Shown here piece by piece: positions 981 through 17,177 of a stretch of DNA of 64,000 nucleotides (positions within the stretch are counted from its first letter, which is position 1; every line of letters begins with the position of its first letter). Source of the stretch: Methanotrichaceae archaeon (GTDB taxonomy: Archaea > Halobacteriota > Methanosarcinia > Methanotrichales > Methanotrichaceae); contig CAWDLW010000015.1 of assembly GCA_963803145.1 (NCBI GenBank), forward strand, positions 288,001 to 352,000, given 5' to 3'. The notes under the pieces are model-generated. The model saw only the letters and a list, made by a program, of their open reading frames with translations, made no database searches and was not told the DNA's origin. The position numbers were made by a program, and so were the translations under genes.

Positions 981-1766
981 ATGGATCGTATATTCGATGA
1001 AACCATCGATTTAGAGATAGGCTCGCTTTATCAGGCGAGATCGGTCGAAGAGATTCCAAACGCACAAGATGGAGGAGTGGTCAGCTGCCTTTTGGGGTAT
1101 GCCCTGGATAAAGGCATAATAAAAGGAGCAGTAGTTGTGGGGAAGGATGACCATTGGAATACATTTCCAGTGCTTGTGACCGATTCGAGAGAGCTCAAAA
1201 AATATGCGGGAAGCGTTTATTTTCCCATAAATAACAGAGAGCATAGGGCGATGATCAGAAGGGCAATAGATACTTACGGAGATATTGGAATAGTAGTCAC
1301 GCCTGGTGAGATGAGCGTTCTTGGCACGGGCACCAATATAGTAAGGCCTGATGAAATTTTTCTGAAAATAGGACTTTTTTGCCTTGGAAGTTTTAGGCCA
1401 GAGGAATTCTGGAATTACGTAGACGGAGAAATAAAAAGAGAAGATATTAAGAGATTTGAGATTGGTGCGGAGCTCAAACTTATCGATAAAGAAGGAAGAA
1501 CGGTTTTCCAAAGGCCAGTCAATGAAGCTCACGATTATTCAACTTCTTGGTGCAAAAAGTGCCATTATTTCATACCCGATACTGCCGACCTGTCCATCGG
1601 ATCGGGGCCAAAAAAGGGTACGAGCGCGGTTTATCTGCAAACCACAAGAGGCTTGGAAATCTTCAGGAAAGCGTATGAAGACGGCCGGATGATTGTAACA
1701 GAGATACCGCCAAAATTTAAGGAAAGGTTCGAAAAGACCATGCATCAAAAGCGAGGGTTTATCTAA
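981..1766 (+). CDS. Coenzyme F420 hydrogenase/dehydrogenase beta-subunit (FrhB/FdhB) family protein, no ferredoxin domain
   Basis: QDGGVVS, IGLFC, CxxC and ADLSIG motifs; the usual GxPCQ motif reads VTPGE. Confidence 0.8.
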   Translation: MDRIFDETIDLEIGSLYQARSVEEIPNAQDGGVVSCLLGYALDKGIIKGAVVVGKDDHWNTFPVLVTDSRELKKYAGSVYFPINNREHRAMIRRAIDTYGDIGIVVTPGEMSVLGTGTNIVRPDEIFLKIGLFCLGSFRPEEFWNYVDGEIKREDIKRFEIGAELKLIDKEGRTVFQRPVNEAHDYSTSWCKKCHYFIPDTADLSIGSGPKKGTSAVYLQTTRGLEIFRKAYEDGRMIVTEIPPKFKERFEKTMHQKRGFI

Positions 1767-1816
1767 ACAGGCAAGAGCCAAGGATTACGCCCAGAAAACG
1801 AAATGCTTATGTAGCA

Positions 1817-1930
1817 TCAGTGGCAGCAATGGTGCTCATGGTGGTGCTCTTCATCACGACAGTGCTCATGAGTATGCACCACGCCTGATTCGTGTTTATG
1901 CTCATGCTCATCACTGGTATGACAGCACAT
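1817..1930 (-). CDS. 37-aa His/Cys-rich putative metal-binding micropeptide
   Basis: MCCHTSDEHEHKHESGVVHTHEHCRDEEHHHEHHCCH*; GGAGGTGA RBS 4 nt upstream; TATTTAAA box at about 1973-1980. Confidence 0.8.
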   Translation of the reverse strand: MCCHTSDEHEHKHESGVVHTHEHCRDEEHHHEHHCCH

Positions 1931-2020
1931 CAGCTTCACCTCCAATTAAAATTTTATCTCGCGTTCTTAGCATTTAAATAGTCCTTATAATCTAAATATC
2001 TTTTGGCCGATAGTATAAAG

Positions 2021-3079
2021 TGTAGAGTCCCGAATGTTTTGACTTTATATACTCGGTCTCTACTTTTAGGTTCTATCTCTAACATTTAATTCAGTCTCCA
2101 TACGATCGAGAAACATTTTCAGCTTGCACCCTTCTGGTAGCCTGGACCAGAAAGCACTATCTGGCGTCTGAAGATACCATTTTGTATCGAGCGATTCATG
2201 GAACCTAACAGTGTTATACCAATCCATGAAATTGTCAAAATTATCGAACCTAGACCTGTTCTTTTGGTATGTATCATTCCATTTTTCGAATTTGCCATTT
2301 GTCTGAGGGTGTTTGACTCTCGCTTTAATATGGACTATTTTATTATCCTTAAGGAAGTTCTCAAATCTGCTATCGGCCTCTCCCTTTTTATCTCGTTTAT
2401 TGGCATAGAACTGAGTTCCATGATCAGTCATTACCTGACTGATTCCCGTCAGCCATCCAAAGTTATCCAGCGCCTCCTGAAGGAGCATGATACTATTCTC
2501 AGTAGTTTCTGCATCGAACTCTCCGCCTGCGAGAATTCGCCGCGAACTATCATCAAGAACTGCACATACCTTTTTTCCATTGAGCTTACTGGTATGCCAG
2601 TCCAGATGTACCAGTGTCAGGCTGTGCTTGCGTTCCCACCTGACCCAAGGTTTTCTACGCTTCGCTTTATTACGGTTTACTTTAGCTTGGCCATGATTCA
2701 GCAGAACCTTGTGAATTGTGTTGTGAGGGATATGTTTTCCGTACTTGAATTCTATGATCTTTTCAAGACGCCTTGCCCCCAAATTTTGCTCTTTGTTGGT
2801 TTCTAATATCAATCTCTCTGATTCCTCATCAACATCTTTTTTCTTACGTCCAAATTTGTTAATGTTTAGGGGCATCTTGGTTTTCATCCAATGCATCCAG
2901 ACTCGCTTAACGGTTGACTCGCTGACTTTCATCTCAGCAGCGATTCTTTTGGTGCTGATGTTACTGGTTTTAGCTCGGATTATGTACCGGATCTTTCTTT
3001 GTGTTAGCTTTACAACCTTATTCTTCTTTCCCATGCCCCTTTGGTGGGTATATAAAGTCAAAGATTTCGGGACTACACA
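2021..3079 (-). mobile_element. IS481-family insertion sequence
   Basis: 32-bp imperfect IRs (TGTAGAGTCCCGAA..GACTTTATATAC / TGTGTAGTCCCGAA..GACTTTATATAC); 15-bp direct repeat GCCGATAGTATAAAG at 2006-2020 and 3080-3094. Confidence 0.92.
2066..3034 (-). CDS. IS481-family DDE transposase (rve core)
   Basis: N-terminal HTH; HLD..DDSSR..TDHGTQF..HPQTNGKFEKWN integrase-core motifs. Confidence 0.9.
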   Translation of the reverse strand: MGKKNKVVKLTQRKIRYIIRAKTSNISTKRIAAEMKVSESTVKRVWMHWMKTKMPLNINKFGRKKKDVDEESERLILETNKEQNLGARRLEKIIEFKYGKHIPHNTIHKVLLNHGQAKVNRNKAKRRKPWVRWERKHSLTLVHLDWHTSKLNGKKVCAVLDDSSRRILAGGEFDAETTENSIMLLQEALDNFGWLTGISQVMTDHGTQFYANKRDKKGEADSRFENFLKDNKIVHIKARVKHPQTNGKFEKWNDTYQKNRSRFDNFDNFMDWYNTVRFHESLDTKWYLQTPDSAFWSRLPEGCKLKMFLDRMETELNVRDRT

Positions 3080-3128
3080 GCCGATAGTATAAAGCTTATA
3101 AGAGATTAACTTCTATCATCAAGGGAGC

Positions 3129-4370
3129 TTGAATAAGTTAATGAATGGCTTTCACAGAACCGAACCCACAATATGCAGGGTTGCTCTATACTCACTGCTG
3201 CTAAACCTGTCTCTAGTATCCACTAAGCTTGTGCTCTCTATAATCACGGGCAGCCTAGCGCTACGCGCCGATGCTATACACTCTTTGGTTGATGTTTTTG
3301 GATCGTTAGCTCTGATAATGGGATTGGTTATATCCAGCAGAAAGAGCAGCAGCTTCCCATATGGTCTTTACAAAGTAGAGAATATGGTTTCGATTATTAT
3401 ATCTTTATTGCTCTTTTCGACGGCCTATGAGATCGTCAGGGAGGCATTAACTGTGGAACAGTCAATCAATCCCTATGGCGAATGGGTTCTATTGGTTGCG
3501 GGTTTTATGATCCCAATCCCGCTTCTGTTCGGTCGCTTTGAGGTAAGGGCTGGACAGAAAGCAAACTCCCCAAGCCTGATTGCTGATGGCAGCCAGTTCA
3601 AGATAGATGCCTTTACAGCATCTATAGTTCTTTTCGCTTTGGTTGGTCAGCATTATGGCGCCCCTCTGGATAGAATCGCAGCAATAGTGGTTGCTATTTT
3701 CGTAGTCAGAGCAGGTTGGAGCATCCTGGTAAGCGGGATGCGGGTGCTCTTGGATGCATCTGTGGACGCACAGACACTGGAGAAAATTCGGATAGCGATA
3801 GAGGCCGAACCAGATGTGAGTGCTGTGAAGTCAGTCACAGCTCGTAACTCTGGACGATATCTTTTCGTTGAGGCTACGGTAGCGCTGCGTATCACCGACC
3901 TGACGAAAGCGCATCAGGCTAGCGAGCGTATAGAGAAGAAGATACGGGAAGCAGTGCCCCATGTGGATCGAGTCATAATACATTATGAGCCCCAGAGCAG
4001 GACCCGGATTCGCTATGCTATTCCTCTAGCAGATGCCGGCGGAGAGATCAGCCTCCACTTTGGAGAGGCTCCCTACTTTGCCCTGGTGGAGATAGATATG
4101 CAACAGAAGATAGTCTCCCGACGGGAAGTGCTGGCCAATCCTTATAAGGATCTGGCAAAGGGTCGGGGACTACGGGTAGCTGAGTTCCTGCTCGACCACA
4201 AGCCGGATTTAGTCCTGACCAGAGAAAACCTCTCAGGAAAAGGCCCCGGCTATGTCTTCGCCGAGGCAGGTGTGGAGATAGTGCAGACCGAGGTCGAGAC
4301 GTTGGGAAAGCTAATTGTTGATCTGCTAGCAGGGCTCGAAACTAATTCTTCAAAGGACCTATCTACATAA
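3129..4370 (+). CDS. Cation diffusion facilitator transporter fused to C-terminal NifX/NifB-type (COG1433) domain
   Basis: ADAIHSLVD and FPYG CDF motifs, ZT dimer domain, C-terminal ISLHFGEAPYF. Confidence 0.88.
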   Translation: MNKLMNGFHRTEPTICRVALYSLLLNLSLVSTKLVLSIITGSLALRADAIHSLVDVFGSLALIMGLVISSRKSSSFPYGLYKVENMVSIIISLLLFSTAYEIVREALTVEQSINPYGEWVLLVAGFMIPIPLLFGRFEVRAGQKANSPSLIADGSQFKIDAFTASIVLFALVGQHYGAPLDRIAAIVVAIFVVRAGWSILVSGMRVLLDASVDAQTLEKIRIAIEAEPDVSAVKSVTARNSGRYLFVEATVALRITDLTKAHQASERIEKKIREAVPHVDRVIIHYEPQSRTRIRYAIPLADAGGEISLHFGEAPYFALVEIDMQQKIVSRREVLANPYKDLAKGRGLRVAEFLLDHKPDLVLTRENLSGKGPGYVFAEAGVEIVQTEVETLGKLIVDLLAGLETNSSKDLST

Positions 4371-4561
4371 CCATAATTGCTTATATGGATTTACTTGAAC
4401 GCCATATGGAGCAGGCTAACGATCAATATTTTCAATTAACCAGTTAGCGCCAACAATGCTTTCCAAGATGCTGTGCGTATATGCCCTTCTTCGATTTGAG
4501 TTAATTTTAAATACAAAATCGCATATTGGCATAATTGTTTCGAAAGACAGTGAGGTATTTA

Positions 4562-4921
4562 ATGAAGGTATGCATCCCAACTATGGGCGACGGCGGCATG
4601 GAAGCGTCAGTTTCTCAGCACTTCGGACGGGCTCCCACTTTCACAATTGTGAATCTAGACACCAGAGAAGTGCAAATCTTAGCCAACAAGGGAGAACACA
4701 TGGGCGGCAACGTCTTGCCGACGGATACGCTCAAAGATCAGGGAGTTCAGGTTATAATCGTGGGTAACCTGGGGCCTAAGGCCATCCAAGCCTTTGCTGA
4801 GCAATGTATTGAAGTTTTCGTCGGGGCGACGGGCACGGTCAAGGATGCCATCGATGACTGGAGAGAAGGGCTACTGACGAAAGCAAGCTCTGATAACGCC
4901 TGTCAGGAGCACAGACATTAG
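4562..4921 (+). CDS. NifB/NifX-family (dinitrogenase FeMo-cofactor biosynthesis domain) protein
   Basis: VSQHFGRAPTF, LGPKA, GTVKDAI motifs; C-terminal CQEHRH. Confidence 0.88.
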   Translation: MKVCIPTMGDGGMEASVSQHFGRAPTFTIVNLDTREVQILANKGEHMGGNVLPTDTLKDQGVQVIIVGNLGPKAIQAFAEQCIEVFVGATGTVKDAIDDWREGLLTKASSDNACQEHRH

Positions 4922-4952
4922 AAAGAAGGCTTACACATAGGAGTATGATAGC

Positions 4953-6557
4953 TTGGCACCTTTTATCGAGATCCGGAACCTGACAGTTCGTTTTGGAGAA
5001 GTTGAAGCCCTGCATAATATCAACCTAACTATAGAGGAGGGCGAGTCGGTAGGCATCCTGGGGAGGAGCGGCTCAGGCAAGAGCATCCTATTGCATGTAC
5101 TCAGGGGAACTGAGACATTTCAGGATATCAGCGGAAGCGTGATCTACCATGTGGCCAGGTGCAAGGCATGTGGGCATGTCGAACCGCCAAGCCTGGCAGG
5201 GAAGACATGCAGGTGCGGCGGCATTTTAGAGCCAATTGATGCCGATTTCGCTGCTCTGGATGTCAATAATTCCTTGAGGAGAGATGTGGCCAGGAGAATT
5301 GCCATAATGCTTCAGAGGACATTTGCCCTCTATGGAGACGAGAGGGTAATAGTCAACGTAATGAGGGCAGTAGAGGAGTCTGGAGATGGAAATACCATGA
5401 GCGTCCAGAGGGCTGCGGATCTGCTAGATGAGGTCGATATGTCTCACCGCATGATGCATGTGGCCCGTGAGCTATCAGGAGGCGAGAAGCAGCGTGTGGT
5501 CTTAGCCAGGCAGCTGGCTAAGTCACCGATGATCCTTCTGGCTGATGAGCCTACGGGAACGCTCGATCCAGCAACGGCTGAATTGGTCCATGAGTCCATA
5601 AGGCGAGCAGTCAAGGACTTTAGGATGACTCTAATCATCACAAGCCATTGGGAAGATGTGATGGTTAACCTGGCAGATAGGGCCGTACTTATGGATAAGG
5701 GGCAGATCAAATCCATAGGTTTGCCTGGGGATGTGGCTGCCGAGTTTATAGCCATGGCCGGGGAGCTAGGCAAGCGCGAGGCTGTAGAGGTTGGCGAGCC
5801 TATAATAAAAGGCAGTGGCCTCTCCAAGCGCTACATAAGCATTGATCGAGGCGTTGTCAAGGCAGTAGATAGTGTAAATTTTGAAGTCAAGGAAGGCGAG
5901 ATCTTCGGCATGGTAGGAGTCAGTGGTGGAGGAAAAACCACACTATCTAGGCTCATAAGCGGGCTCGTCACGCCGACTTTCGGGAATATATCTGTTAGAG
6001 TTGGAGATGATTGGATAGATATGACAGTCTTAGGCTCCGGAGGCCGGGGAAGAGCTACAAAATATATCGGAGTGCTTCACCAGGAGTACACGCTTTATCC
6101 CTCCAGATCTGTTATAGAAAATCTGACGGAATCAATAGGCTTATCGCTTCCATTCGAGCTTGCAGAGAGAAAGGCAATTCATACGCTGACTACGGTTGGC
6201 TTTACAGAGGAGCAGGCTGAGGCTGTGCTTGCCAAAATGCCGGACGAACTGAGCGAAGGTGAACGGCATAGAATTGCCATGGCCCAGGTGCTGATAAAAG
6301 AGCCTAGCATAATTGTTCTGGATGAGCCGACTGGAACCATGGATGCCATAACCAAGGTTGAGGTGACGAAATCTATTCTCAGCGCTCGTGAAGAGCTGAG
6401 TGAGACATTTGTTATAGTCAGCCATGATATGGACTTCGTGAAAAACGTATGCGATAGGGCTATGCTAATGCGTAATGGAAAGGCCGTGTTCACTGGCAAT
6501 CCTGATGATGTTTTGGCCAAGATTACTGAAGAAGAGCATGAGCTGATGGATAGCTAA
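4953..6557 (+). CDS. atwA: Methyl-coenzyme M reductase system component A2 (double ABC ATPase)
   Basis: Two ABC cassettes, Zn-binding insert CKAC..CRCG, IAIMLQRTFALY, HRMMHVARELSGGEKQRVVLARQLAK. Confidence 0.93.
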   Translation: MAPFIEIRNLTVRFGEVEALHNINLTIEEGESVGILGRSGSGKSILLHVLRGTETFQDISGSVIYHVARCKACGHVEPPSLAGKTCRCGGILEPIDADFAALDVNNSLRRDVARRIAIMLQRTFALYGDERVIVNVMRAVEESGDGNTMSVQRAADLLDEVDMSHRMMHVARELSGGEKQRVVLARQLAKSPMILLADEPTGTLDPATAELVHESIRRAVKDFRMTLIITSHWEDVMVNLADRAVLMDKGQIKSIGLPGDVAAEFIAMAGELGKREAVEVGEPIIKGSGLSKRYISIDRGVVKAVDSVNFEVKEGEIFGMVGVSGGGKTTLSRLISGLVTPTFGNISVRVGDDWIDMTVLGSGGRGRATKYIGVLHQEYTLYPSRSVIENLTESIGLSLPFELAERKAIHTLTTVGFTEEQAEAVLAKMPDELSEGERHRIAMAQVLIKEPSIIVLDEPTGTMDAITKVEVTKSILSAREELSETFVIVSHDMDFVKNVCDRAMLMRNGKAVFTGNPDDVLAKITEEEHELMDS

Positions 6558-6881
6558 TTCCGAGGGTATATCGAATATATGGAGGCTCACTGGAATTGGA
6601 GTTCGACCAAGTTGGCCATGATATTCATCATCAACGTTATACAAAGCTATAACAGCTGATGAAGGCGGATATTTTGATGTATCACCAAATTTGGTTACTA
6701 GCGGGCCAAGTGATAGGCTGGCGAATTACTGGCATGTGGTCGCCCTGAAATATGCCTCCCAGATAGTGATACCTATGGAAGTAGGTGGTTCTGTTGAATC
6801 TTATGGTGGTAGCTTGGATAAATCGATATCATTCAATCACCCCAAATTCCATAACACCATCGGATGCAACAGAATACTGAT

Positions 6882-7334
6882 TCACCTAGATACGTCTCCT
6901 TCAATCATCAAGTTCATGACATAATCGAACTCCATCGCCTGGCACCATCCGGACTTCTCAAAGATGGACATAAAGCAGACACCTATGAGCTTTTTGTACT
7001 TAACCTTGGTTAGAAAATTTTTCATTTCTTCAGGTTTTACGCCTATCTTGGGCATGGCCATACCTCCTAGAACTACGACCACATCTGCATCGGCGCTGCT
7101 TCCCTCACCAAGTTCCAACCCATACTCCGTTGAGATTATTTTGCGCGCTTTTTCCTTATTTAGGCTCGGCACGAAAGCCAGCTCTTTGTCTCGAACTGGA
7201 TAGCCCAGGAAGAGTGCAAAAGGCGTACAAAAACCAGGGGACCCAACGAAGGTTATCTTCTTTTCATCTTTCACCAGATCTCTGAAGCCGTTCAGCATTC
7301 CGCCGAGGCCTTTAACATCCTGAACCTTTTCCAT
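6882..7334 (-). CDS. DUF2124 family protein (methanogen-associated)
   Basis: GSPGFCTPFA, VVLGGMAMP, IGVCFMSIF motifs. Confidence 0.8.
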   Translation of the reverse strand: MEKVQDVKGLGGMLNGFRDLVKDEKKITFVGSPGFCTPFALFLGYPVRDKELAFVPSLNKEKARKIISTEYGLELGEGSSADADVVVVLGGMAMPKIGVKPEEMKNFLTKVKYKKLIGVCFMSIFEKSGWCQAMEFDYVMNLMIEGDVSR

Positions 7335-7471
7335 AATGATCTGTTCAGACTACATCTCCTAGAGCATTAACTTTTGGTTAGGGAAAGAGAATCAAATGTG
7401 ATGCAATCCTCCGCAGCAGTCAAGCGTAAGTAAGAAATGCTGATTTACCCACTGTACCCATTGGAGATTAT

Positions 7472-8182
7472 ATGAACCTTAATGAAATATCCGATGTTTT
7501 GAAGACATCCCTTGGGATCAAAGATAACCCAGTTGGCGTAGTCCTATTTAAGAGAGAGGAGGACATACCGAAAGAGATAATGGTCACAGAGCGGCCTTTT
7601 AACTACTGCCAGATGATCCAGGGTGCCAGGCTGAATGGTGAGAGCTTCCTTGCACATGCCGATTATCATAAGTGCAAAGGAGGCGCAGCAGGCCTTGGCC
7701 TATTGGAGTGTCCTGAGAATATTTCATCAGGAACTCTGTATTTTGAAAAGCTTCATAAATGCGCGTCTAAGGAGGCCGGATCACAAATCGCTGCCAATAT
7801 GCCTCGCCTGCCCGCCGGTTCAACCGTGGCGACATATGTCGCTCCTCTGGACAAGATGGTGGTCAGCCCAGATATCGTCATAGTGGTGGGCGCTCCGCTC
7901 GCGGCCAGGAGAATCACTCAGGCTGAGATGTATGCCGAAGGTGGAAGGGCGAATTTCAGCACCGCAGGAATTCAGTCCTTCTGTGTCGACGCTACTGCAT
8001 CTCCATATCTTAAAGGTGAGGTCAATGTATCTCTTGGATGCGATGGATCTGCCAGGAATGCCAACCTTGAGGATGAAAGCGTAGTCATAGGCATACCCTT
8101 CGATGTGCTAAAACAGATCACCCCAGTTCTCAAAGAGCACTATAAGGGATGGGATGCCTTCATGAGGAGCAAACCAAGCTAG
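7472..8182 (+). CDS. DUF169 family protein
   Basis: PVGV, YCQMI, CKGGAAGLG, SLGCDGSAR motifs. Confidence 0.85.
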   Translation: MNLNEISDVLKTSLGIKDNPVGVVLFKREEDIPKEIMVTERPFNYCQMIQGARLNGESFLAHADYHKCKGGAAGLGLLECPENISSGTLYFEKLHKCASKEAGSQIAANMPRLPAGSTVATYVAPLDKMVVSPDIVIVVGAPLAARRITQAEMYAEGGRANFSTAGIQSFCVDATASPYLKGEVNVSLGCDGSARNANLEDESVVIGIPFDVLKQITPVLKEHYKGWDAFMRSKPS

Positions 8183-8390
8183 CTCCCCTACATAAGATTT
8201 TTAAAGAGTAGTCAAGTTTCATGGGCATATATGCCTTAGATTGCCAAATATGTTACATATAGTACCCAAAAGAGAGCAGAAGAAACATACCTTTGATAAG
8301 ATGTTATTGTTTATTCCAATAATCTTCCATGCCACCTGGAGGATATGAAGGCTCTAATTATAGATTCCATGAGCCTGCAATAAAGATATG

Positions 8391-9275
8391 CTAGAGTTCT
8401 ATCAGGTCTCCTGAGGCCAGAGGCTGACACCGGTCTCCAAGAGAATCCATAAGGCAGCAGATAGCCTTGGTACCTGTGCAATGCCCTGGCCTGAGTATTT
8501 CAGGATCGAGCTTTACCATCTCCTTCGCCATCAACGCCATGTGATCCTTATCCGCTCCATTGAGATGAAAACCACCTATCACTGCATACAGATCCTCAAT
8601 GCCGGTAATCTTTTGAGCGTACTTTGTAGTGTTTATTATCCCTGAATGAGCACAGCCAGAGACGACCACGAGTCCTTTGCCTTCGATGTTTACTATCATG
8701 GCCTGATCGCCCTGAATAAGGTCCTGCGAATATATGCCCTCCTTAGTTGTATAGAAGCCGGCCACCTTTTCAAAGGGCATCTCTCGTATTATTTCGCCTG
8801 TTGTCATAAATCCATCAACCAAAGTGACAGGATTTCTGGCATATACCATGACAGCGCCTGATGCCTCTGCTTCTGTTTGGGAGAAGGGCGGACCAATGAA
8901 CTTCAGAAAAGGCTTTGATTTCAGCTTGGGAGAGAAGATATCTGGATGGGCTAAAACTGGTATCCGCTTATTTACCCTTTTCAAGACCCCAATCAGGCCG
9001 CCAGTATGGTCGTAATGCCCGTGGCTTAGAAAGATGAGGTCGATATCATTCAGGTCAAGCTTCAGGGCATCAGCATTGTGAATAGTGACTTCAGAGGATG
9101 ATCCCGTATCCATCAGTACTTTCAGTTTCTCAGAGCAACCCAAATCCAGCTCCAAAAAAAAGCTGAGCCCATGCTGTCCCCATATCAGGGGGTCTGTTGT
9201 AGAGGCGGAATCCTCCACCACTACTCTGAGCTTTAGCCCTTTAACCATGGTATTGAACAGGCATCCTCCATGCAT
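8391..9275 (-). CDS. MBL-fold metallo-hydrolase (COG1237-like); start may be 9248
   Basis: HGLS, LMDTG, SHGHYDHTGG, GCAHSG, IGGFHL, PGHCTG. Confidence 0.88.
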   Translation of the reverse strand: MHGGCLFNTMVKGLKLRVVVEDSASTTDPLIWGQHGLSFFLELDLGCSEKLKVLMDTGSSSEVTIHNADALKLDLNDIDLIFLSHGHYDHTGGLIGVLKRVNKRIPVLAHPDIFSPKLKSKPFLKFIGPPFSQTEAEASGAVMVYARNPVTLVDGFMTTGEIIREMPFEKVAGFYTTKEGIYSQDLIQGDQAMIVNIEGKGLVVVSGCAHSGIINTTKYAQKITGIEDLYAVIGGFHLNGADKDHMALMAKEMVKLDPEILRPGHCTGTKAICCLMDSLGDRCQPLASGDLIEL

Positions 9276-9326
9276 AGGGAGATTCTAAACAGACATATGG
9301 GCTCCAAACAAGTCGATACTAGAGGC

Positions 9327-9974
9327 TTAAAGCGAATCGCTCTTGCCGACGAGTCTTTCGAAGCACTCTTTGCAGACCACTTTCCCGCATGCAGTTCTGC
9401 CTTTTATCTCCATAAAGTTCTCGCCGCATTCTTCGCATTTGAGCGAAGGATATATTCTGGCCATTTCCGGAGCAGGAATATCCACTTCTTCTATCGATAG
9501 CAGATCCTTATCAGGTGCATTTAATATATACTGGAATAGCTGTTCTCTTAATCCTTCAAGCTCTTCTTGCTCTTCTTTCGTCAGCTGGCTTCTGGATAAC
9601 TTCTCCTGAAGCTGACCCATGCGCTTAGGGATCTCACCTTTAAAGTATATCCTCAGAGCTTTGTTATTTCCTCTGCTGTAAAAGGTGAAGGCCTGCTTTC
9701 CATAGTCTTTGAAGACAAGGTTACCCTTCCCAAAGGTACAGCTGAGCATCTGCTGAATGGCATCAACGCTACAGGAGTTATTATCAACAATTGCAACTAG
9801 CTCTTCGTCCTCGGCTTTACCGTAGTGTTCCTTAACATATTTAGCTACTCTATAACCGATCGCTAGTCCAATGCACTCATGTCCATGAAATTCTATAACC
9901 TTTCTGAGATCTTCATCCATATCAATCGCCGGATTAGATATCTCTAAGCCTGGCGATAAGTATGTTCTGATCAA
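9327..9974 (-). CDS. FmdE-family protein with C-terminal Zn finger
   Basis: FHGHEC, CSVDAIQ, CTFGKGNL, CEECGE..CKEC. Confidence 0.88.
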   Translation of the reverse strand: MIRTYLSPGLEISNPAIDMDEDLRKVIEFHGHECIGLAIGYRVAKYVKEHYGKAEDEELVAIVDNNSCSVDAIQQMLSCTFGKGNLVFKDYGKQAFTFYSRGNNKALRIYFKGEIPKRMGQLQEKLSRSQLTKEEQEELEGLREQLFQYILNAPDKDLLSIEEVDIPAPEMARIYPSLKCEECGENFMEIKGRTACGKVVCKECFERLVGKSDSL

Positions 9975-10331
9975 GTCCCCTTTTATTCAGAAGCTGAAGT
10001 ACATCTTCCGATCCACAGTTTTTTTCTTTTGTCTTGCTTTATAGAAAAGCGGCAAGACTGCCAATATATCCTCTGGATTCATGCTAACCCCCTGGGAGTC
10101 TTTGCTGATACTCCCGTTTGAATATAGCGCTAGGATTGAGGATATTAATATCCTCCTCATTGTTATCAATTTCTTGGATAACTGTAGCAGGCAAAACGGC
10201 ATCTAATGGGCCTTGAATCAGAAGTTCAAGAGGGAGAAAACTTGAAAAAAGTTGAAGAAAAAAGGAGGAAAATATTGCCATAGCATTTATTGCATGACAA
10301 GCTAAGAAATTAAAAATTTTGTTATAGTGCA

Positions 10332-10658
10332 CTAGTCCCCTTTGACTTTAATGGAGTTAATTTCGTGCCCTATAATAGTATACCTTTTTCCTCTTAAAGC
10401 ATCCTCGAGGCCATCAATGATTCTGCGATAATTGTTGGAGCCGACAACTGTATTTATCATGATGCCAGGCTCCGACTGATCTTTTATTGCATTTAGAGCC
10501 ATGTCTGGGTCCTCGCTGAGACGGAAATTCTTCCAGGCATTGGGGGCCATACCCCGATACTCTATTAGATAAAAGCCTGTTATCTCAAGTTCAGACAGCA
10601 TATTTATGACCTTAACAAGGTTGTCATGGTCTACGAAAATCTGGGCCATTATCTTCAT
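10332..10658 (-). CDS. MJ1244-family (PII-like) protein
   Basis: IFVD..VINML..ITGFYLIEYRGM pattern; start reassigned to ATG at 10658. Confidence 0.7.
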   Translation of the reverse strand: MKIMAQIFVDHDNLVKVINMLSELEITGFYLIEYRGMAPNAWKNFRLSEDPDMALNAIKDQSEPGIMINTVVGSNNYRRIIDGLEDALRGKRYTIIGHEINSIKVKGD

Positions 10659-11003
10659 GAAATACCCCAAAGCGGTTAATTCTATGGCATATCTTAAATA
10701 GCTTCCCAAGATCAGAAAATATTCTTTTATCCTACATGCATATTGGAGATCGCATGACAGAGGATAGATGGTTGCATCCAGCATCTATCTATTCTGCCTC
10801 TCTTTTCTTTGTGATACTAAAATATATATAACCTGTAGGATAGCGATCTCATTACCTAAGGCTATGTGAGTATATGAATATTATTATAAAAGCATCTTCA
10901 ATCCTCTTACCAAACATCTTTACGCTCTGAAAAGCCAGTAAGAGCGGCAAGAATTCGATAATTTCGGAAAGTATTTCAACACTAAATAACAATATAATGT
11001 GTT

Positions 11004-11213
11004 ATGGCCAAAGAAGAATATAAGCAATTTACCTGTAGTGATATAGGCATGGCATGTGGATTTCAGGTTCGTGCTAAGACTGAGGAGGAGGTCATGGAGC
11101 ATGCGAAGATGCATGCCTCAAAAGCCCATGGCATGAAGGAAATATCTCCGGATTTTGCAAAGAAGATCAAGGCCAGTATTAAATCAGTGCCGGTAGATAT
11201 ACCGAAGACCTAG
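11004..11213 (+). CDS. DUF1059 small metal-binding protein
   Basis: FTCSDIGMACGF..EEEVMEHAKMHASKAH. Confidence 0.88.
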   Translation: MAKEEYKQFTCSDIGMACGFQVRAKTEEEVMEHAKMHASKAHGMKEISPDFAKKIKASIKSVPVDIPKT

Positions 11214-11248
11214 GCAGAACCTCTTTAACCTTCCTTTTTTTATTGATG

Positions 11249-11632
11249 TTACCAAATCACTAAGTAGATTTTATCGCCTTCCTTCTTACCTTTCACTAGC
11301 TGACAGTGCCTGAGTATTGCGAACTCATTCTCCAGTTCCCTTGGGCTCAGCTTGAACTCATTTCCTATTTCTTCCCTGGTAGCCGTTCCTTTAGCTTTAA
11401 TGAACTCGTAGATGCCTTTCTGCAGATCAGTAAGGCCATCGGTTCCAGTAAGGCCATGGCTCTCTCTAAAGACCCGCTTTGATCTCTCTCCCCAGGGATC
11501 GCATACTCTGATCCTATGTCCTACTTCGATATAGCAATCCTCGCAGAGAGTCTGGCCTCCTGATGCGAAGACCTCCTCCTCAGGAACATCTTTGCCGCAG
11601 CTTTGGCATTTTATGTAATTGGGCATGCTCAA
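11249..11632 (-). CDS. Hypothetical Zn-finger + winged-helix protein
   Basis: CQSC..CEDC, CDPW, C-terminal HTH-like segment. Confidence 0.7.
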   Translation of the reverse strand: MSMPNYIKCQSCGKDVPEEEVFASGGQTLCEDCYIEVGHRIRVCDPWGERSKRVFRESHGLTGTDGLTDLQKGIYEFIKAKGTATREEIGNEFKLSPRELENEFAILRHCQLVKGKKEGDKIYLVIW

Positions 11633-11638
11633 TCTCTC

Positions 11639-11941
11639 CTAATCCTCAAGAAGCAATGAAGCAGCATTGAATCCAGAACCCATGCGTACTAATCCCGCTA
11701 CTGCAGCGGCTTCAAGGAGTTCATCTCTGCTGGCACCAGCAACTAAAGCGCGTTCTTTGTGCACCTTGACGCAAGTTTCACATTTAACTGCAACGGCACA
11801 CGCCAATGCAATGATGGCTTTATCTTTTGAGGAAAGCGCGCCATCTTTTAGAATCTCTAATGCCAATTTCTTAAAGGCAAGATCTACTTCCTCACCTAAC
11901 GCCTCTGCGAACTTATCTGCTCTGGGTTTTTGTCCTATCAT
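11639..11941 (-). CDS. Carboxymuconolactone decarboxylase/AhpD-family protein
   Basis: [26 protein letters not shown]. Confidence 0.9.
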
Positions 11942-12050
11942 TTCGAATTACCTCATAAAACTCAGATATCCTTATTTCAAGATACTAATAGCATCACACC
12001 ACGCCATGTTATGTAAGGTTAATAATAGTTGATATGGTTTACTTCTCCCT

Positions 12051-12491
12051 TCACGACCTTTCATGAGGTACTATCAGAACTGGCGCCTTAGAGTATCGAA
12101 CTACTTTTTCTGCTACGCTTCCGAGAAGTGCACTCGTAAGTCCGCTTTTTCCAATGCTACCGATTACCAGCAGGCCAACACCGTGTTCCTGTGATATCCT
12201 GACCAGTTCCGTGCCAGGATCGCCCTCTACTATAACCCCCTCGCAAGAGACTCCCTCGGTCTTGGCTATCTCACTGATATCTTTTATTGCTTTTTCCCCT
12301 TCCTGCTGCAAGCATTTTCGTATTCCATCTGAAAATTCTCCGCAGTTGGATAGATAAGCCAGCCGGATAACATCCGCTACATAGACTCCGATAACCTTGC
12401 TACCGGAGAGTTTCGCAATCTCTATGCCCGAGATTGCTGCATTCAGGCTCGTATCAGATCCATCAGTTGCAACTATTATCTTCTCAAACAT
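12051..12491 (-). CDS. Universal stress protein
   Basis: IIVATDGS..LLGSVAEKVVRYSKAPVLIV. Confidence 0.93.
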   Translation of the reverse strand: MFEKIIVATDGSDTSLNAAISGIEIAKLSGSKVIGVYVADVIRLAYLSNCGEFSDGIRKCLQQEGEKAIKDISEIAKTEGVSCEGVIVEGDPGTELVRISQEHGVGLLVIGSIGKSGLTSALLGSVAEKVVRYSKAPVLIVPHERS

Positions 12492-12823
12492 GAAATTGAG
12501 TATGATATATTACAACAGAGTTATATAGGCATATCCATGCAGATATGCTAGATTCTCATTACTCCTATAGCGTCAATCCTTGACTGTTGCTTTCTATTTA
12601 CTTTGTGCCCCTGTCTTTGAAATAGTCTAACAACGATTTGAATTTACAGCAGATCTCTTTTTGAAAGGCTTGTAGTCTGAAAACTTCTGCATCGTCGGAA
12701 AGACTAGAGAGCAGCCTGCCAGCATCGCCCTATGTGGTAAATGCGGGCTGATCCACTATGAGAAAATAGATAAAATCAAAGAGTTCTAGCTTAGTCGCTT
12801 CTGATTTCAACTTTTTGGGATTA

Positions 12824-14008
12824 TCATTTTATCGATGTTTCCGCACTGAACAAGCGTAAAGACTTATCGTAAACATCTTCCGTCCTCTCAGCAATCTTAT
12901 CCCATCTGAACTCTGCTTCGACCCTTTGTTGTCCAGCCTTGCCTAGCTTATTCATCTCTGAAGGATTATCTAAAAGTCGGTTTATGCACCACGCGATAGA
13001 TTCGGGCTGAATATAAGCCAACAGACCATCTTCGAAGTTCCTTATAATGCTGATCGCCTCGGTTGCTACAACAGGTTTGCCCGCATCCCAAGCCTCTAAG
13101 ATTATGACCCCAAAAGGCTCGTTCCTGCTGGGGACGCAGACAAGATCGCATGCGCTTATCAACGTCTCTTTCTGTGGACCTGGCACGTATCCCAAAAACT
13201 TGCATGCCTCTTGTATACCGATGCTTCTGGCCCGATGCTCACATTCGGCCTTCATATCGCCTTCGCCCATGAAGATGAAATTTGCATTATTATGTTTGCG
13301 AAGCACTAGTGGTATAGCTTCAACTAGGAGATCGGGGCCCTTCTGGTAGCTTATCCTTCCGCAAAAGAGCACTAATGGATCAAGCGGATCTATGCTATAC
13401 TTCTTCTTAACCATTCCAGGATCTGGATATCTATTCGCCTCTTTTCTCGCGATGCCATTTGGTATAATGTTTATCTTGCTTTCAGGAATAGAGTAGATCT
13501 TCTGAATCTCATCCAGCATCTGCTTTGTAGTAACGATAATCTGCGATGATTCATAACCTCCAAGCCATTCCCTGTGAGAGATCTCCTTAGACGCGCTCGA
13601 ATTGCCAAAGTTATTGCCGTTTCTACCCCAATCGGTGCTATGTATGGTAAATGCATAAGGAATGTTATGCTCGAACTTTATGCGATTGGCTGCTAACACT
13701 GGGTGCCAGTCGTGAGCGTGGATTACATCGAATCTGCCAAAGATCTTCTGAACTCTTTCAAAGCGATCAAAGATGGCCTCGCACATCCCGTTCATTTGGG
13801 ATATGACATCTCCTGTGCTATCCGAATCAACTCTCTGGTAGTGAACCTCATTTATCTTATCATAAGCATCAAAGTCGCCATTGCGGGTAAATACGTGTAC
13901 CTCATGGCCCTTGCTGGCTAGCGCCTCAGAAAGTTGAGATACATGGGGCGCTATGCCGCCCACTTTTATAGAGTACAGACTCTCCCAGGAGAGCATTCCT
14001 ATGCGCAT
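12824..14008 (-). CDS. Glycosyltransferase family 4 protein
   Basis: MRIGMLSWE, HAHDW, PSRNEPFGVIILEAW. Confidence 0.9.
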   Translation of the reverse strand: MRIGMLSWESLYSIKVGGIAPHVSQLSEALASKGHEVHVFTRNGDFDAYDKINEVHYQRVDSDSTGDVISQMNGMCEAIFDRFERVQKIFGRFDVIHAHDWHPVLAANRIKFEHNIPYAFTIHSTDWGRNGNNFGNSSASKEISHREWLGGYESSQIIVTTKQMLDEIQKIYSIPESKINIIPNGIARKEANRYPDPGMVKKKYSIDPLDPLVLFCGRISYQKGPDLLVEAIPLVLRKHNNANFIFMGEGDMKAECEHRARSIGIQEACKFLGYVPGPQKETLISACDLVCVPSRNEPFGVIILEAWDAGKPVVATEAISIIRNFEDGLLAYIQPESIAWCINRLLDNPSEMNKLGKAGQQRVEAEFRWDKIAERTEDVYDKSLRLFSAETSIK

Positions 14009-14129
14009 CTCTTCACCTGCTAATTCCACTCAGCGTTTATTATGTCATTTACGTCTATTTAAGGCATCTATGAAAATTCATGTTAAATCGAAAAGGATCC
14101 CCTAAATGGTACATGCGTTTTGGATTGCT

Positions 14130-14143
14130 AAAAAAAGAGAAAA
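14130..14143 (-). terminator. Oligo-U terminator of the mcr operon
   Basis: TTTTCTCTTTTTTT on the minus strand about 20 nt after the mcrA stop. Confidence 0.6.
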
Positions 14144-14163
14144 TTGGGTGTAGGCCTTGCGGC

Positions 14164-15876
14164 TTACACTGCTGGCATGACCAGGGATCTCTCGCCTGCA
14201 GCGCGGAACTCGCGTGCACCGCCCTTGCCGAAGCCACCGCGGACATCGTCCCAGGTAAATACCATTCCTGGGTTGGCGAATGTTACCTTGATCAATGGGT
14301 TGATGGCGAACGCATCCATGCGGCCAGCGTGAGCAGCAGATGATATGCCTGCATACTCGCCCTGGTGGCCCACGTTCATCGCGTAGTTCGGATAGTTGGC
14401 GCCCCTCAGCTCCAGTGGGTTGCCCTCGTCGGACTGATAGGAGAACACGTTTGTTGGACCGCACTGATCCTGCAGGTCGTATCCGAAGAAGCCCAGTCTG
14501 CCCCAGCCTTCCTTGTGCAGGAGCATGCTGAGATACCAGGCAGCGAGTCCAACCTGGCTGTGTCCGGAGGCGATTGCGCCAGTGATACCGGAGGCAGCGG
14601 CCAGGACGGAAGCCCTCTGGGATCCGCCGAAGTGATCCTCGAGCAGTGTCGGATATGACTCATACTGCTCCATGCCGTAGAGAGTGACCTCAGTGCCCAG
14701 CTCCTTGGCTATATCCAGGGTCTTGGGTGCCTTGGCGAATCCGCCGAACTTATCGTTGGCGAAGTCTACGCCGTAGTAGCAGAAGTCGTCCAGGACGTCA
14801 TTGGTGTAGGCTGCTGTTGCGTACTGTGTGAATCCGACACCGCCGGACATGTAGCTTCCGAGCCATATCTGGTCATAGAGCATAGCGCCAGCGGCGACTA
14901 CGTTCAGGGAGACCTTGACTGGGTCCTGTGGGTTTGTCCTGGATGTCTGGACCATGTCTGCCAGGAATCCGAAGGATATACCGCCGGGGTTGTTGGGTCC
15001 GCGGGCCCTTCTGGCGGGCAGCATCTCTGACATCTGCAGAACTGCAGCGTGCTTGGCAGCGAATGCCAGGTCAGCTACAGCGGCCTCACCGGCGCACATG
15101 TTGTATGCATCGATGAAGGTCATGCCGAGCTGCATGGCGCTCCACCTTGATGTGGTGCCGCCGTCGCAGGATCTGACTACGATAGTTGGGATGTGGATTG
15201 CCTGCCATGTGGTCTTGCCGATGGCTGCCTTGAGCGCCTCTGCCTGATCGGCTGGGAATGCCTTGTTGATGTTGATTACATACTGAGAATCGATCTCATC
15301 AGCCAGGGCATCGTCGCCTGTGAATACACGGACGTTGCAGTCATCTACCAGGCCGGGGTGAGTCTCGCACATGTGCTCCTGAACCACGGCTGCGCCGGGC
15401 ATGGCGTGGTTGAGGATCTCGAGATAGTTGTTGATGGTCTCGGGTGTGACCTCTTTGCCGAGCCTCTTCTCCAGAACCTCGTGGGCCAGATCCAGGCCTA
15501 CGATTATGGTCCTGCGAACATCGTCCCACATCTGCTGCATTGCAGGGTTGTTGACGAAGTGCAGGTCATCGCCCTCTACTACATACTCAGTTCCTGAGAG
15601 CTTGTAGGGGACGAGCTGCCTCTGACCCAGGGGTATTCCGCCTGCGTGTACATAGGGATTATAGAATGAGACGCCACGCTTGCCCTCAAGCTTCTTGGAG
15701 AACTCCATGAACTCTCTCTTACGGGGGCTCTGATCGGGGCCGAGCCTCAGGTATCCGGTCTTCTGGTCCTGGAGGTTCTCTTCCATTATCCCTGCAGTAG
15801 CGAGCAGCTTCTTCTCGGCTGCAAACTTCTTATCGAGAGCCTTTATGAATAGCTTCTTGCTGTGTAACTTTGCCAT
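14164..15876 (-). CDS. mcrA: Methyl-coenzyme M reductase alpha subunit
   Basis: [54 protein letters not shown]. Confidence 0.99.
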
Positions 15877-15893
15877 TTTATATCACCCACCTT

Positions 15894-16649
15894 TTACTCT
15901 GGCCTGAATCCCCACTTGCTGCGCAGCTCCCACATATGATGTAGGGCGGTGATGGTTTCACCGTTCTGCTCTTTTCTGAGGTTGACGCCGTCAACTCTGA
16001 ATATGGTGGTTCTCTTCTTGGCCTCAGACTCGCTCATGGGCTTGCCAATATTGATCTTTCTGTCCAGTGGGATTCCGACCTGGTCCTTGACCTGGTAGAC
16101 GTTTCCGTCCTTGCCCATCTCAGTCCTGGCCAGCATATCGAACATCATGCCGTTCTCTTCCAACCTCAGGGAGTGGCCATGCACAGTGCAGCCTCTCATG
16201 GAAGAGAGAGCGACATCAGTCATCTCGCTGTCCAGCTGCTTCTTGGTGTATGCCTCGATATCCCTCTCCCTGGCCTCGATGATCTGTCTTCCGGACAGAG
16301 TGCCTGGGTCGCATCCCTTGCAGTTGATGGCTCCCCAATAGGATCTCCAGTAGGGGATTGAGGGTGCGAAGTAGTATGAATCGGCAAACTGGGAGTACCT
16401 TACACGGTCACCAGCTGCTGCACCGGGTGTTGGGGTTACGATCTGTCTTACTGGGCAGTCGGGCTCGCCCATCTCCTTGAGTGGTGGATGGGTGCTTGGA
16501 TAATCGGCACCTGGCGCCCTGTGGCCCATTGTTGTTACTACATCAGCCTCGGGAATATCTCTGAGCTTCTCGAGGTTGCCGGACATGTGCTTCCTCCTGT
16601 TAATGCCAACAGAGGTGCTTCCGGGATAATATTGTGGTGTGTATGCCAT
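15894..16649 (-). CDS. mcrG: Methyl-coenzyme M reductase gamma subunit
   Basis: PQYYPG, DPGTLSGRQIIEARERD, VHGHSLRL. Confidence 0.99.
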   Translation of the reverse strand: MAYTPQYYPGSTSVGINRRKHMSGNLEKLRDIPEADVVTTMGHRAPGADYPSTHPPLKEMGEPDCPVRQIVTPTPGAAAGDRVRYSQFADSYYFAPSIPYWRSYWGAINCKGCDPGTLSGRQIIEARERDIEAYTKKQLDSEMTDVALSSMRGCTVHGHSLRLEENGMMFDMLARTEMGKDGNVYQVKDQVGIPLDRKINIGKPMSESEAKKRTTIFRVDGVNLRKEQNGETITALHHMWELRSKWGFRPE

Positions 16650-16652
16650 ATT

Positions 16653-17174
16653 TTATCTCTCCTCATCATTGTCGTCAATAGTCACATGTTCTTCAGACAG
16701 AATTGAAAGCCTATCCTTCTTAGCCTTCGGATCGGTCAGCCCTAAAATCCTCTTGTCTTCGACTTTGCTTCCGTACTTGGCATAGTCGGAGACTGTCAGC
16801 CGGTCATGGAAGAATTTGCCTATTTTGATCTGGCAGGAGAATGGCAGCGCTCGCTCACACGCCGCCTTTAAACCCTCTAGGTATTCCTCGCTCTCCAGCT
16901 CGAGCCTTATTCTTCCTACCTTTACTTTCAGCTCAAATGCCTGATCTCCGATCTGGATGAGGATGTCTCTGTTCTCCTCTATGGGAGAACCCTTGCCCGG
17001 GCCGTAGGGAACCGACCTGGGCATATTGGGACCATGTATAGTGATCCTCAAGACACCCCCATTCTTATAGATCTCGTTGAGAAGGCGCTGAGCCGATTCA
17101 GGCATCAAGAACCTGCTGGGGAATATCTCAACCTGGACTGATTTCGTGTCTGATTCAGTGACCATGTCCGTCAA
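16653..17174 (-). CDS. mcrD: MCR operon protein D
   Basis: EIFPSRFL, HGPNMP..VPYGP, TVSDYAKYG; lies between mcrB and mcrG. Confidence 0.96.
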   Translation of the reverse strand: MTDMVTESDTKSVQVEIFPSRFLMPESAQRLLNEIYKNGGVLRITIHGPNMPRSVPYGPGKGSPIEENRDILIQIGDQAFELKVKVGRIRLELESEEYLEGLKAACERALPFSCQIKIGKFFHDRLTVSDYAKYGSKVEDKRILGLTDPKAKKDRLSILSEEHVTIDDNDEER

Positions 17175-17177
17175 GTC

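Follow-up and report, generated by a model that had tools for sequence, protein, structure and literature searches.

Component A2, the product of atwA, is essential and expressed at a low level, and a Cys4 zinc motif sets it apart from a zinc-less homolog (bioRxiv 10.64898/2026.03.18.712670). In M. maripaludis, a hydrophobic patch of A2 formed by P396 and F399 holds the N-terminal helix of McrA, and L-cluster-like clusters are found on McrC and Mmp7 of the machinery that activates methyl-coenzyme M reductase (MCR), with NifB as their probable source (PMC12176620). Two or three atwA genes are found in Methanothermobacter, and no NifX linkage of these copies is described in the available part of that report (PMC3087415). 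The accessible text of a 2026 review treats the shuttling of L-cluster-type cofactors to archaeal targets as open, and describes archaeal NifB as lacking a NifX domain (PMC13474568). Here we analyzed a 64,000-nucleotide stretch (hereafter the window; C15:288001-352000) of the 4.13-Mb assembly of a Methanotrichaceae archaeon (99.3% complete, 6.8% contamination). In this window, a second component A2 gene, named atwA2, follows a gene for a CDF transporter fused to a NifX-fold domain (CDF-NifX) and a gene for a small stand-alone NifX-fold protein (NifX-A). We tentatively favor the reading that this locus is an iron-sulfur (Fe-S) handling operon, of the type of IssA and orange protein (ORP), to which an intact A2 gene is attached, with a real but accessory coupling to MCR activation.

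IssA is a thioferrate Fe-S store with a PF02579/IPR003731 domain and a long cationic Gly-rich C-terminal tail (PMC5524996), and IssA homologs were reported from 134 of 168 type II methanogen species (PMC8351635). MrpORP was described as the Fe-S carrier of the orp cluster, and the portion of that paper at hand describes no A2 gene in this cluster (PMC6345978). Our literature searches, with supplements outside their scope, found no paper linking an A2 paralog to NifX-fold genes. These searches also found no prior report of a condition-specific second A2 and no description of a C-terminal NifX-fold extension on a CDF transporter.

The ORF (open reading frame) calls of the window confirmed three co-oriented genes on the plus strand for CDF-NifX, NifX-A and atwA2. 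A sequence-only reading of the window had given these genes NifX-fold, CDF and atwA domains, and Pfam and TIGR03269 searches bore out these assignments. The 31-bp gap and the distance of about 7.6 kb to mcrA that it had given also agreed with the coordinates: the spacer between the NifX-A stop and the atwA2 start covers 4922-4952, and the atwA2 stop is 7,606 bp from the end of mcrA. Its statement that mcrC and mmp3/7/17 are not found alongside held as well, as Pfam and NCBIfam searches of the 18 ORFs in the interval 981-18482 detected no MCR_C, mmp3, mmp7 or mmp17 homologs. Finally, its caveat that this atwA might be a second paralog proved correct. The genome contains two A2 genes above the TIGR03269 cut-off, of which the canonical copy, atwA1 (C11:35272-36849), heads an atwA-mmp3-6-5-15-17-7 cluster. 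The run after atwA1 consists of an mmp3-size ORF, DUF2102, DUF2112, a BcrAD-type ATPase, DUF2113, an MCR_C-family protein and a CMD protein. None of the genes of the atwA-mmp3-mmp6-mmp5-mmp15-mmp17-mmp7 cluster was found around atwA2 within 981-18482. Elsewhere in the genome, an Mmp7-type match was located on C11 and the only mcrC-like match, a weak one (34 bits), on contig C34.

The atwA2 gene is intact, keeps every A2 motif and is under purifying selection. Its product scored 821.2 bits against TIGR03269 (cut-off 517.1; 821 in the six-frame search of the genome), matched model positions 1-527 of 530 and contained two ABC_tran stretches by Pfam. The identity between atwA2 and atwA1 was 85% (457/535). 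The Cys4 motif (C70/C73/C86/C88) was invariant in 30 A2 sequences that included both copies, as were the Walker and signature columns, i.e., G37-K43, G322-T330, D198-P200, D457-T460, LSGGE and LSEGE. The protein aligned over its full length to chain K of PDB 8S7V (596.9 bits). In an ungapped block, counted by eye, P396 and F399 of the McrA-helix patch corresponded to P400 and L403. Both residues were invariant in all 30 aligned A2 sequences, atwA1 included, and therefore atwA2 does not differ from the canonical copy there. Between this genome and a relative from the same genus (G002), the ratios of nonsynonymous to synonymous substitution rates (dN/dS) were 0.073 for atwA2, 0.048 for atwA1, 0.13 for CDF-NifX and 0.19 for NifX-A, and purifying selection on atwA2 was as strong as that on its neighboring genes. 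The dS between the two paralogs was ~1.45, compared with 0.30-0.41 between the two species for atwA genes, which places the duplication long before the species split. The presence of two A2 genes is not explained by two MCR isoenzymes, because the genome contains a single mcrA (one TIGR03256 match). In addition to the two A2 genes, a third A2-like frame of 580 amino acid residues was found ~32 kb upstream of the window (G000:C15:254183-255826). It scored 221 bits against TIGR03269, which is below the cut-off, and may be the zinc-less A2 homolog outlined in the available text of bioRxiv 10.64898/2026.03.18.712670.

The genome encodes only two PF02579 domains, and both are at this locus. The frame of NifX-A is open from 4535, and the ATG at 4562 was chosen as its start, which fits the N-termini of 35 orthologs. 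NifX-A matched PF02579 with an E value of 1.8e-22 (79.9 bits; cut-off 26.3). Across 36 aligned sequences, conservation reached at least 90% in each of the N, A, C, H and H columns of its C-terminal N-A-C-x-x-H-x-H motif, and the PTMG, HFGRA, EH-GG and GGLGPKA motifs were also common to NifX-A and the 35 orthologs. The polypeptide extends 12 residues past the fold and ends with ...SSDNACQEHRH. The AlphaFold model of NifX-A had a pLDDT of 88.7, with a mean of 54, i.e., low confidence, in the tail. Its best fold matches were ORP (TMq 0.81) and TM1816 (TMq 0.80), and values ranged from 0.73 to 0.81 across TM1816, PH0822, ORP, TM1290, MJ0327 and MTH1175. NifX-A was more distant from NifX in 9IAN (TMq 0.50) and from the NafY core 1P90 (TMq 0.63). 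No NCBIfam model of the NifX/NafY families matched the PF02579 proteins of the window; the only match with an E value of 0.001 or below was a partial one to MrpORP (47.7 and 21.5 bits; cut-off 450).

Similar to NifX-A, CDF-NifX possesses a PF02579 (Nitro_FeMo-Co) domain, which covers residues 304-398 (E 8e-11, 42.5 bits; cut-off 26.3), and residues 297-386 matched MTH1175. The remainder of the protein matched Cation_efflux (E 6e-35) and ZT_dimer (E 9e-14, 51.7 bits) and met the CDF superfamily model TIGR01297 (176.5 bits; cut-off 82.35), with the dimerization domain present. The E value against FieF/YiiP structures was 2.5e-14. All metal-specific CDF equivalog models searched (MamB, MamM, FieF, MntE, Cdf31, ZitB and DmeF) scored below their cut-offs, the best being MamB (129.2 vs. 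350). The transmembrane motif ADGxQFxxD (residues 48-55 and 152-160) carries Gln in the Methanotrichaceae fusions and His in those of family f3 (ADATHSYTD), at a position that we take to be part of the CDF transport site. The residue difference suggests that metal preference may differ between the two groups of fusions.

The survey of relatives comprised 41 genomes, this one included, of which 34 had PF02579 and 37 had atwA. The sequence-only reading would have been undercut by a NifX-atwA adjacency confined to this genome, and this is not what was found: G002 shows it in synteny, three further Methanotrichaceae genera show a looser form, and Methanoregulaceae provide an independent case. The locus of G002 is syntenic gene for gene (FrhB-like, IS481, CDF-NifX, NifX, NifX, atwA2, DUF2124, DUF169, MBL and FmdE), with a 30-bp spacer before atwA2 and one NifX gene more than the window. 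In genera g4 and g15, atwA2 is 1.3-7.4 kb from CDF-NifX, being upstream of the FrhB-like and CDF-NifX genes in g4 and 7.4 kb from CDF-NifX in g15. In g14, atwA2 is at a contig end and adjoins an MBL gene of the kind that often goes with the cluster. Moreover, in g8, which has a single atwA, NifX-A adjoins the canonical mmp cluster at its end, and CDF-NifX of one g8 genome is ~1 kb from mcrBDGA.

Similar to Methanotrichaceae, Methanoregulaceae have a second atwA near CDF-NifX. In four loci (L073, L077, L080 and L081), atwA comes 5.2-7.2 kb after CDF-NifX; each of these genomes has one further atwA, which heads the canonical mmp cluster. In L077 and L073, the gene order is DtxR-type repressor, ZnuA, fused ZnuBC, DUF134, DUF5320, the CDF gene, a radical SAM protein (opposite strand), NifX, two MinD-type ATPases with 4Fe-4S inserts, DUF134, NifX, a 178-aa protein, atwA, an MrpORP-like carrier and a 124-aa protein; mcrA follows in L077 only. 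A Cys/His-tailed NifX is ~0.8 kb upstream of atwA2 in L077. The MrpORP-like carrier scored 354.6 bits (cut-off 450) and has no fused PF02579 domain. The radical SAM protein was rejected as a NifB, as it had only weak matches to other radical SAM families. The small proteins that flank atwA2 and Mrp in L077 (15553-16089 and 18954-19328) are paralogs that share the block ...ERWVTVQELR..FGL.RNQCTTVSGFL.RL... and have no Pfam or NCBIfam match. In Methanomicrobiales, atwA was found in 148 of 151 genomes, ~43 of which had two matches (a hand count in which some may be split genes). Thirty Methanomicrobiales atwA loci were fetched, 11 of the atwA2 type and 19 of the atwA1 type. The atwA1-type loci all had mmp3 next door (19/19). 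The atwA2-type loci had DUF134 in their flanks (9/11) and an MrpORP-like gene (9/11); a NifX-like gene within 1.5 kb and DUF169 were each found in 2 of the 11.

The Methanoregulaceae arrangement bears on the idea that an A2 paralog was recruited as the ATPase of an ORP-like complex (NifX, Mrp, MinD/Fer4 and DUF134) that matures or repairs an Fe-S or heterometal protein other than MCR. The position of Methanoregulaceae atwA2 between DUF134 and the MrpORP-like gene in 9 of 11 loci fits this idea, as do the two MinD/Fer4 ATPases and two NifX-fold genes of that cluster, the role of MrpORP as an Fe-S carrier (PMC6345978, as far as its text was available) and the fold of NifX-A, which is as near to the Desulfovibrio orange protein as to anything. 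However, the close identity of atwA2 to atwA1, with the same Cys4 motif and patch residues, gives no sign of a changed partner, and Pfam searches found no MinD/Fer4, Mrp or DUF134 gene in the window. We regard such recruitment as quite unlikely.

In a maximum likelihood tree of 35 rows, the atwA1 and atwA2 of Methanoregulaceae formed sister clades (each 100/99) within one 100/100 clade, and all atwA copies of Methanotrichaceae were in a 100/100 clade of their own. Thus, the duplications were independent in the two families. The atwA2 copies of Methanotrichaceae did not form one clade, and those of g4 were sister to g4 atwA1 (100/100). A single origin of Methanotrichaceae atwA2 was rejected by the approximately unbiased (AU) test (p = 0.0013 with six rows, 4.3e-5 with a seventh) for a group defined only once the tree was at hand, and paralogs that exchange sequence by gene conversion would produce the same outcome. 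The pattern in Methanotrichaceae therefore reflects either repeated duplication into one neighborhood or one old duplication followed by gene conversion.

To place these loci in a wider setting, a pattern scan was applied to one genome per species. It returned 500 stretches, 449 of which were confirmed by tblastn, and the best 80 of the 449 were analyzed; some of these 80 are the same contigs as the loci of the family survey, so that the two surveys overlap. The 80 loci came from Methanotrichaceae, Methanoregulaceae, Methanoculleus, Methanospirillum, Methanocella and a few bins labeled otherwise. The CDF-NifX/NifX module is widely distributed among class II methanogens, and 45 of the 80 loci have one or more separate NifX-like ORFs. 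Genes of atwA, the mmp cluster or mcr were within the flanks of 16 of the 80 loci, and of 13 of the 29 with at least 8 kb on both sides. Nine loci had mcr or mmp-cluster genes within 10 kb, against ~1.3 expected from random placement in a 2.5-Mb genome, a rough estimate that ignores kinship, and a further seven had only a second atwA.

The fetched flanks of the other 64 loci contained no atwA, mmp or mcr genes, and this is the first of several observations that suit a different explanation, i.e., that the cluster serves iron or Fe-S storage and efflux, with an IssA-type thioferrate store and an Fe(II) transporter, and that atwA2 is a redundant duplicate carried along without any functional tie. 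The best partial matches of the CDF part are the iron transporters MamB, MamM and FieF, and the Methanoregulaceae cluster begins with a DtxR-type repressor and a ZnuABC-type importer. Moreover, atwA2 is disrupted in frame or incomplete in all three g4 assemblies seen, and the atwA duplicate of family f4 has no NifX link. On the other hand, two independent duplications, in Methanotrichaceae and Methanoregulaceae, each put atwA next to a Cys/His-tailed NifX-fold gene. A single Methanotrichaceae atwA2 clade is rejected, yet the copies keep the same neighborhood; the selection on atwA2 is no weaker than that on its neighbors; and the canonical mmp cluster of another genus abuts NifX-A. Since the pairing recurs after independent atwA duplications, the coupling appears to be functional rather than accidental. 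As A2 duplicates joined such clusters independently in two orders and mmp or mcr genes are often beside them, accessory functional coupling is favored. In our own grading, the explanation of atwA2 as an unconnected duplicate comes next after it, and we consider it somewhat unlikely.

Accessory coupling has to be weighed against a number of observations that count against it, to which the disrupted g4 genes and the f4 duplicate just mentioned also belong. The link between atwA2-NifX and MCR activation is drawn from genomic context, and the PF02579 proteins of the window belong to the TM1816/ORP/MTH1175 branch and not to NifX or NafY proper. In G001, from the same genus, the contig with atwA2 had no match to any of the reference proteins used for comparison, among them those of the PF02579 genes, and the one weak PF02579 match of G001 was elsewhere. 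Five of 24 family relatives (G004, G007, G010, G018 and G021; 96-99% complete) had atwA and no PF02579; therefore, NifX-fold proteins cannot be essential for MCR activation. In closed chromosomes of Methanosarcinaceae, NifX pairs were at least 150 kb from atwA. A class-wide sample had atwA in 192 of 201 genomes and two copies in 10 (three in g1, two in g4, one each in g14 and g15 and three in family f4); the f4 duplicate sits with ArsR, DUF63 and ferredoxin genes, and two of the three f4 genomes had no PF02579 at all. Finally, related genomes are not independent, so that kinship inflates the proximity counts, and ancestral gene order near mcr, simply inherited, may account for part of what is seen in Methanotrichaceae.

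Two of these cases deserve description in their own right. The g4 frameshifts differ between L010 (=L038; 8874-10443) and L037 (7025-8648), falling after about residue 370 in one and 194 in the other, and atwA2 of the third g4 assembly is incomplete at the N-terminus and matches only from model position 187. These breaks represent either pseudogenization or assembly errors. The f4 paralog (L164, 9344-11458) is a 704-aa A2-like protein with a C-terminal extension, whose gene comes after those for an ArsR-type regulator and a DUF63 membrane protein and before a ferredoxin gene.

The Methanotrichaceae cluster usually contains a third member, NifX-B, a second small gene whose product is ~30% identical to NifX-A. 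A long Gly/Arg-rich cationic tail was present in every Methanotrichaceae NifX-B among the 25 sequences listed. This tail is as described for IssA (PMC5524996, from the text available), a likeness that also suits a storage cluster with atwA2 as a mere duplicate, and it points to Fe-S handling as the core role. The most plausible reading of the core cluster, with its NifX-fold CDF transporter, IssA-like NifX-B and Cys/His-tailed NifX-A, is that it handles Fe-S or metals. NifX-B is absent from the window (region 4371-4561). The sequence preceding NifX-A here can be aligned to that preceding NifX-B in G002, and the first codons of the two genes are identical, which indicates that the NifX-B leader was joined to NifX-A by a deletion. 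After the stop codon of CDF-NifX, the window and 28 of the 80 related loci, which represent several genera, share a motif of ~34 nucleotides, TTTAAATA-n5-TCGCATATnnGCnTAATTG, and the copy in the window aligns with the sequence ahead of NifX-B in G002. We read this motif as the putative promoter of a NifX(-B)/NifX-A(/atwA2) transcript. The motif scored 49.2 with a position weight matrix at the window site, and the next best site in the 4.13-Mb genome scored 15.6. It was therefore rejected as a regulon marker, as no second site was found in the genome, and its single occurrence says nothing on co-regulation with mcr, mmp or iron genes. A scan of 2900-7500 for bacterial-type promoters and terminators yielded no more sites than shuffled sequences, with bacterial models that do not cover archaeal promoters.

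The sequence-only reading had proposed that the NifX-type proteins carry or buffer a cluster or metal for MCR activation, an interpretation that genomic context partly supports. In a more specific form, which is our own, NifX-A and the NifX-fold domain of the CDF would be carriers of the NifB product (an L-cluster-type [8Fe-9S-C]) to McrC and Mmp7, atwA2 would be a dedicated (re)loading ATPase, and Methanoregulaceae would have reached the same solution independently with an Mrp-type carrier added. We consider such delivery of the NifB product to be unlikely. The genome has one NifB-type gene, on C8 beside the SRP19 and RNase P p30 genes, and no genes related to the locus were found in this neighborhood, which consists of housekeeping genes. 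No nifDK-type gene or nif operon was found in the genome, and its one PF00148 match, a 384-aa frame, was read as CfbD-like.

A nickel/F430 route, with the CDF importing or buffering nickel and the NifX-fold proteins shuttling F430 to MCR, appears highly improbable. It derives from a neighborhood network of anaerobic methanotrophic (ANME)-2a archaea that ties a NifX-family protein, a CDF, 4Fe-4S proteins and a P-loop NTPase to MCR, and in which the NifX-family protein is read as an F430 shuttle and the CDF as a nickel importer (PMC12622379, in the part available). However, that proposal is based on neighborhood alone, and McrD, which is encoded in the mcr operon of the window, is described as acting before F430 translocation (PMC12176620, available sections). 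The CDF proteins matched at our locus belong to the efflux type and transport Fe/Zn/Mn/Cd, and none of the nickel-specific families scored up to its cut-off. The ligands of PF02579 domains that we know of are Fe-S, FeMo or Mo-Cu clusters and not tetrapyrroles, which also argues against this route.

The features of the window are listed in Table 1. The FrhB-like gene is directly upstream of CDF-NifX in L037, L038 and L039 and lies across the insertion sequence (IS) in G002. DUF2124, DUF169 and the metallo-beta-lactamase (MBL)-fold gene are recurrent neighbors of the CDF-NifX/NifX cluster. For instance, an MBL gene was found in 24 of the 80 CDF-NifX loci (the sum of the rows labeled MBL), DUF169 is beside CDF-NifX in L038 and two family f3 loci, and a Methanoregula locus (L091) has DUF2124, MBL, NifX and CDF-NifX near mcrA. 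The two f3 loci (L027, 6761-12400; L028, 7395-12958) contain a distant CDF-NifX (~30% identity) with a NifX-like gene, together with a 642-aa FrhB-like fusion and two DUF169 genes. Thus, the FrhB-like and DUF169 genes travel with the cluster across families. The IS481 transposase scored 157.9 bits, below the NCBIfam cut-off of 224, and occurs in six genomic copies with 100% protein identity. The same site between the FrhB-like and CDF-NifX genes is also filled in G002 (93% identity, dN/dS 0.07), which might mean that an old insertion has persisted or that the element prefers this site as a target.

Table 1. Features of the window around CDF-NifX, NifX-A and atwA2, with positions counted from the first nucleotide of the window.
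Feature	Position	Strand	Basis
FrhB/FdhB-like protein (F420-binding beta-subunit family)	981-1766	+	Pfam FrhB_FdhB_N, FrhB_FdhB_C
IS481-family transposase, between FrhB-like and CDF-NifX genes	2066-3061	-	NCBIfam IS481, Pfam rve
CDF-NifX, CDF divalent-cation transporter with C-terminal cytoplasmic PF02579 domain, 413 aa	3129-4370	+	Pfam, NCBIfam
Promoter-like motif, TATA-like TTTAAATA then TCGCATATnnGCnTAATTG	4505-4538	+	Conservation across related loci
NifX-A, stand-alone PF02579 protein, 119 aa	4562-4921	+	Pfam, structure match
atwA2, second component A2, 534 aa	4953-6557	+	TIGR03269
DUF2124	6882-7334	-	Pfam
DUF169	7472-8182	+	Pfam
MBL-fold hydrolase	8391-9275	-	Pfam
mcrBDGA operon, mcrC absent from operon	14164-18482	-	Pfam, NCBIfam

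Under accessory coupling, NifX-A and atwA2 would be on one transcript that starts at the conserved motif, and switching on the operon would supply additional A2 and, with it, proteins that carry Fe-S (or metal). The NifX-fold domain of the transporter and NifX-A would hold or hand on iron or Fe-S species, and atwA2 would bind MCR and drive its ATP-dependent activation like canonical A2. The coupling might help to meet the large Fe-S requirement of MCR activation, acting as a dispensable, accessory back-up and not as a core part. The repeated and independent recruitment of a second A2 to NifX-fold and Mrp carrier genes names small proteins as candidate carriers or buffers, and thus as candidates for how the MCR activation machinery obtains its unusual Fe-S clusters, which is testable in cultured lineages such as Methanoregula and Methanothrix relatives. 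Should the link be no more than regulatory, a condition-specific second A2 would still be indicated. Should it be accidental, the results nonetheless define a CDF-NifX/IssA-like/NifX-A cluster that is widespread in class II methanogens and whose promoter-like motif is unusually well conserved.

Compared with component A2 of M. maripaludis (PDB 8S7V/9H1L, chain K), atwA2 is alike in full length, its two ABC domains, the Cys4 zinc motif and the proline of the McrA-helix patch. It differs in being a second copy outside the atwA-mmp cluster, behind a NifX-fold gene, and in having Leu for Phe in the patch, as do all 30 sequences aligned. NifX-A shares its fold with the stand-alone COG1433/PF02579 proteins TM1816, PH0822, TM1290, MJ0327, MTH1175 and Desulfovibrio ORP, with sequence E values from 8.7e-14 to 2.2e-6, and TM1816 also has a His-rich C-terminal tail. 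Different from these proteins, however, NifX-A has its own N-A-C-x-x-H-x-H motif and atwA2 downstream. NifX-A shares the domain superfamily of NifX and NafY with a weak fold match, but differs in that it matches no family model and is not part of a nif operon. The globular domain is the same as that of IssA, and NifX-B of the relatives has an IssA-like long cationic Gly-rich tail, whereas NifX-A and the CDF-fused domain of the window are without such a tail and the tailed NifX-B is deleted here. The Methanoregulaceae locus resembles the orp cluster with MrpORP of sulfate reducers in its PF02579 proteins, two MinD/4Fe-4S ATPases, DUF134 and MrpORP-like carrier, while the window has the PF02579 parts only. 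Similar to FieF/YiiP and MamB/MamM, CDF-NifX belongs to the CDF superfamily and contains the dimerization domain; it differs from them by its C-terminal NifX-fold and by equivalog scores far below the cut-offs.

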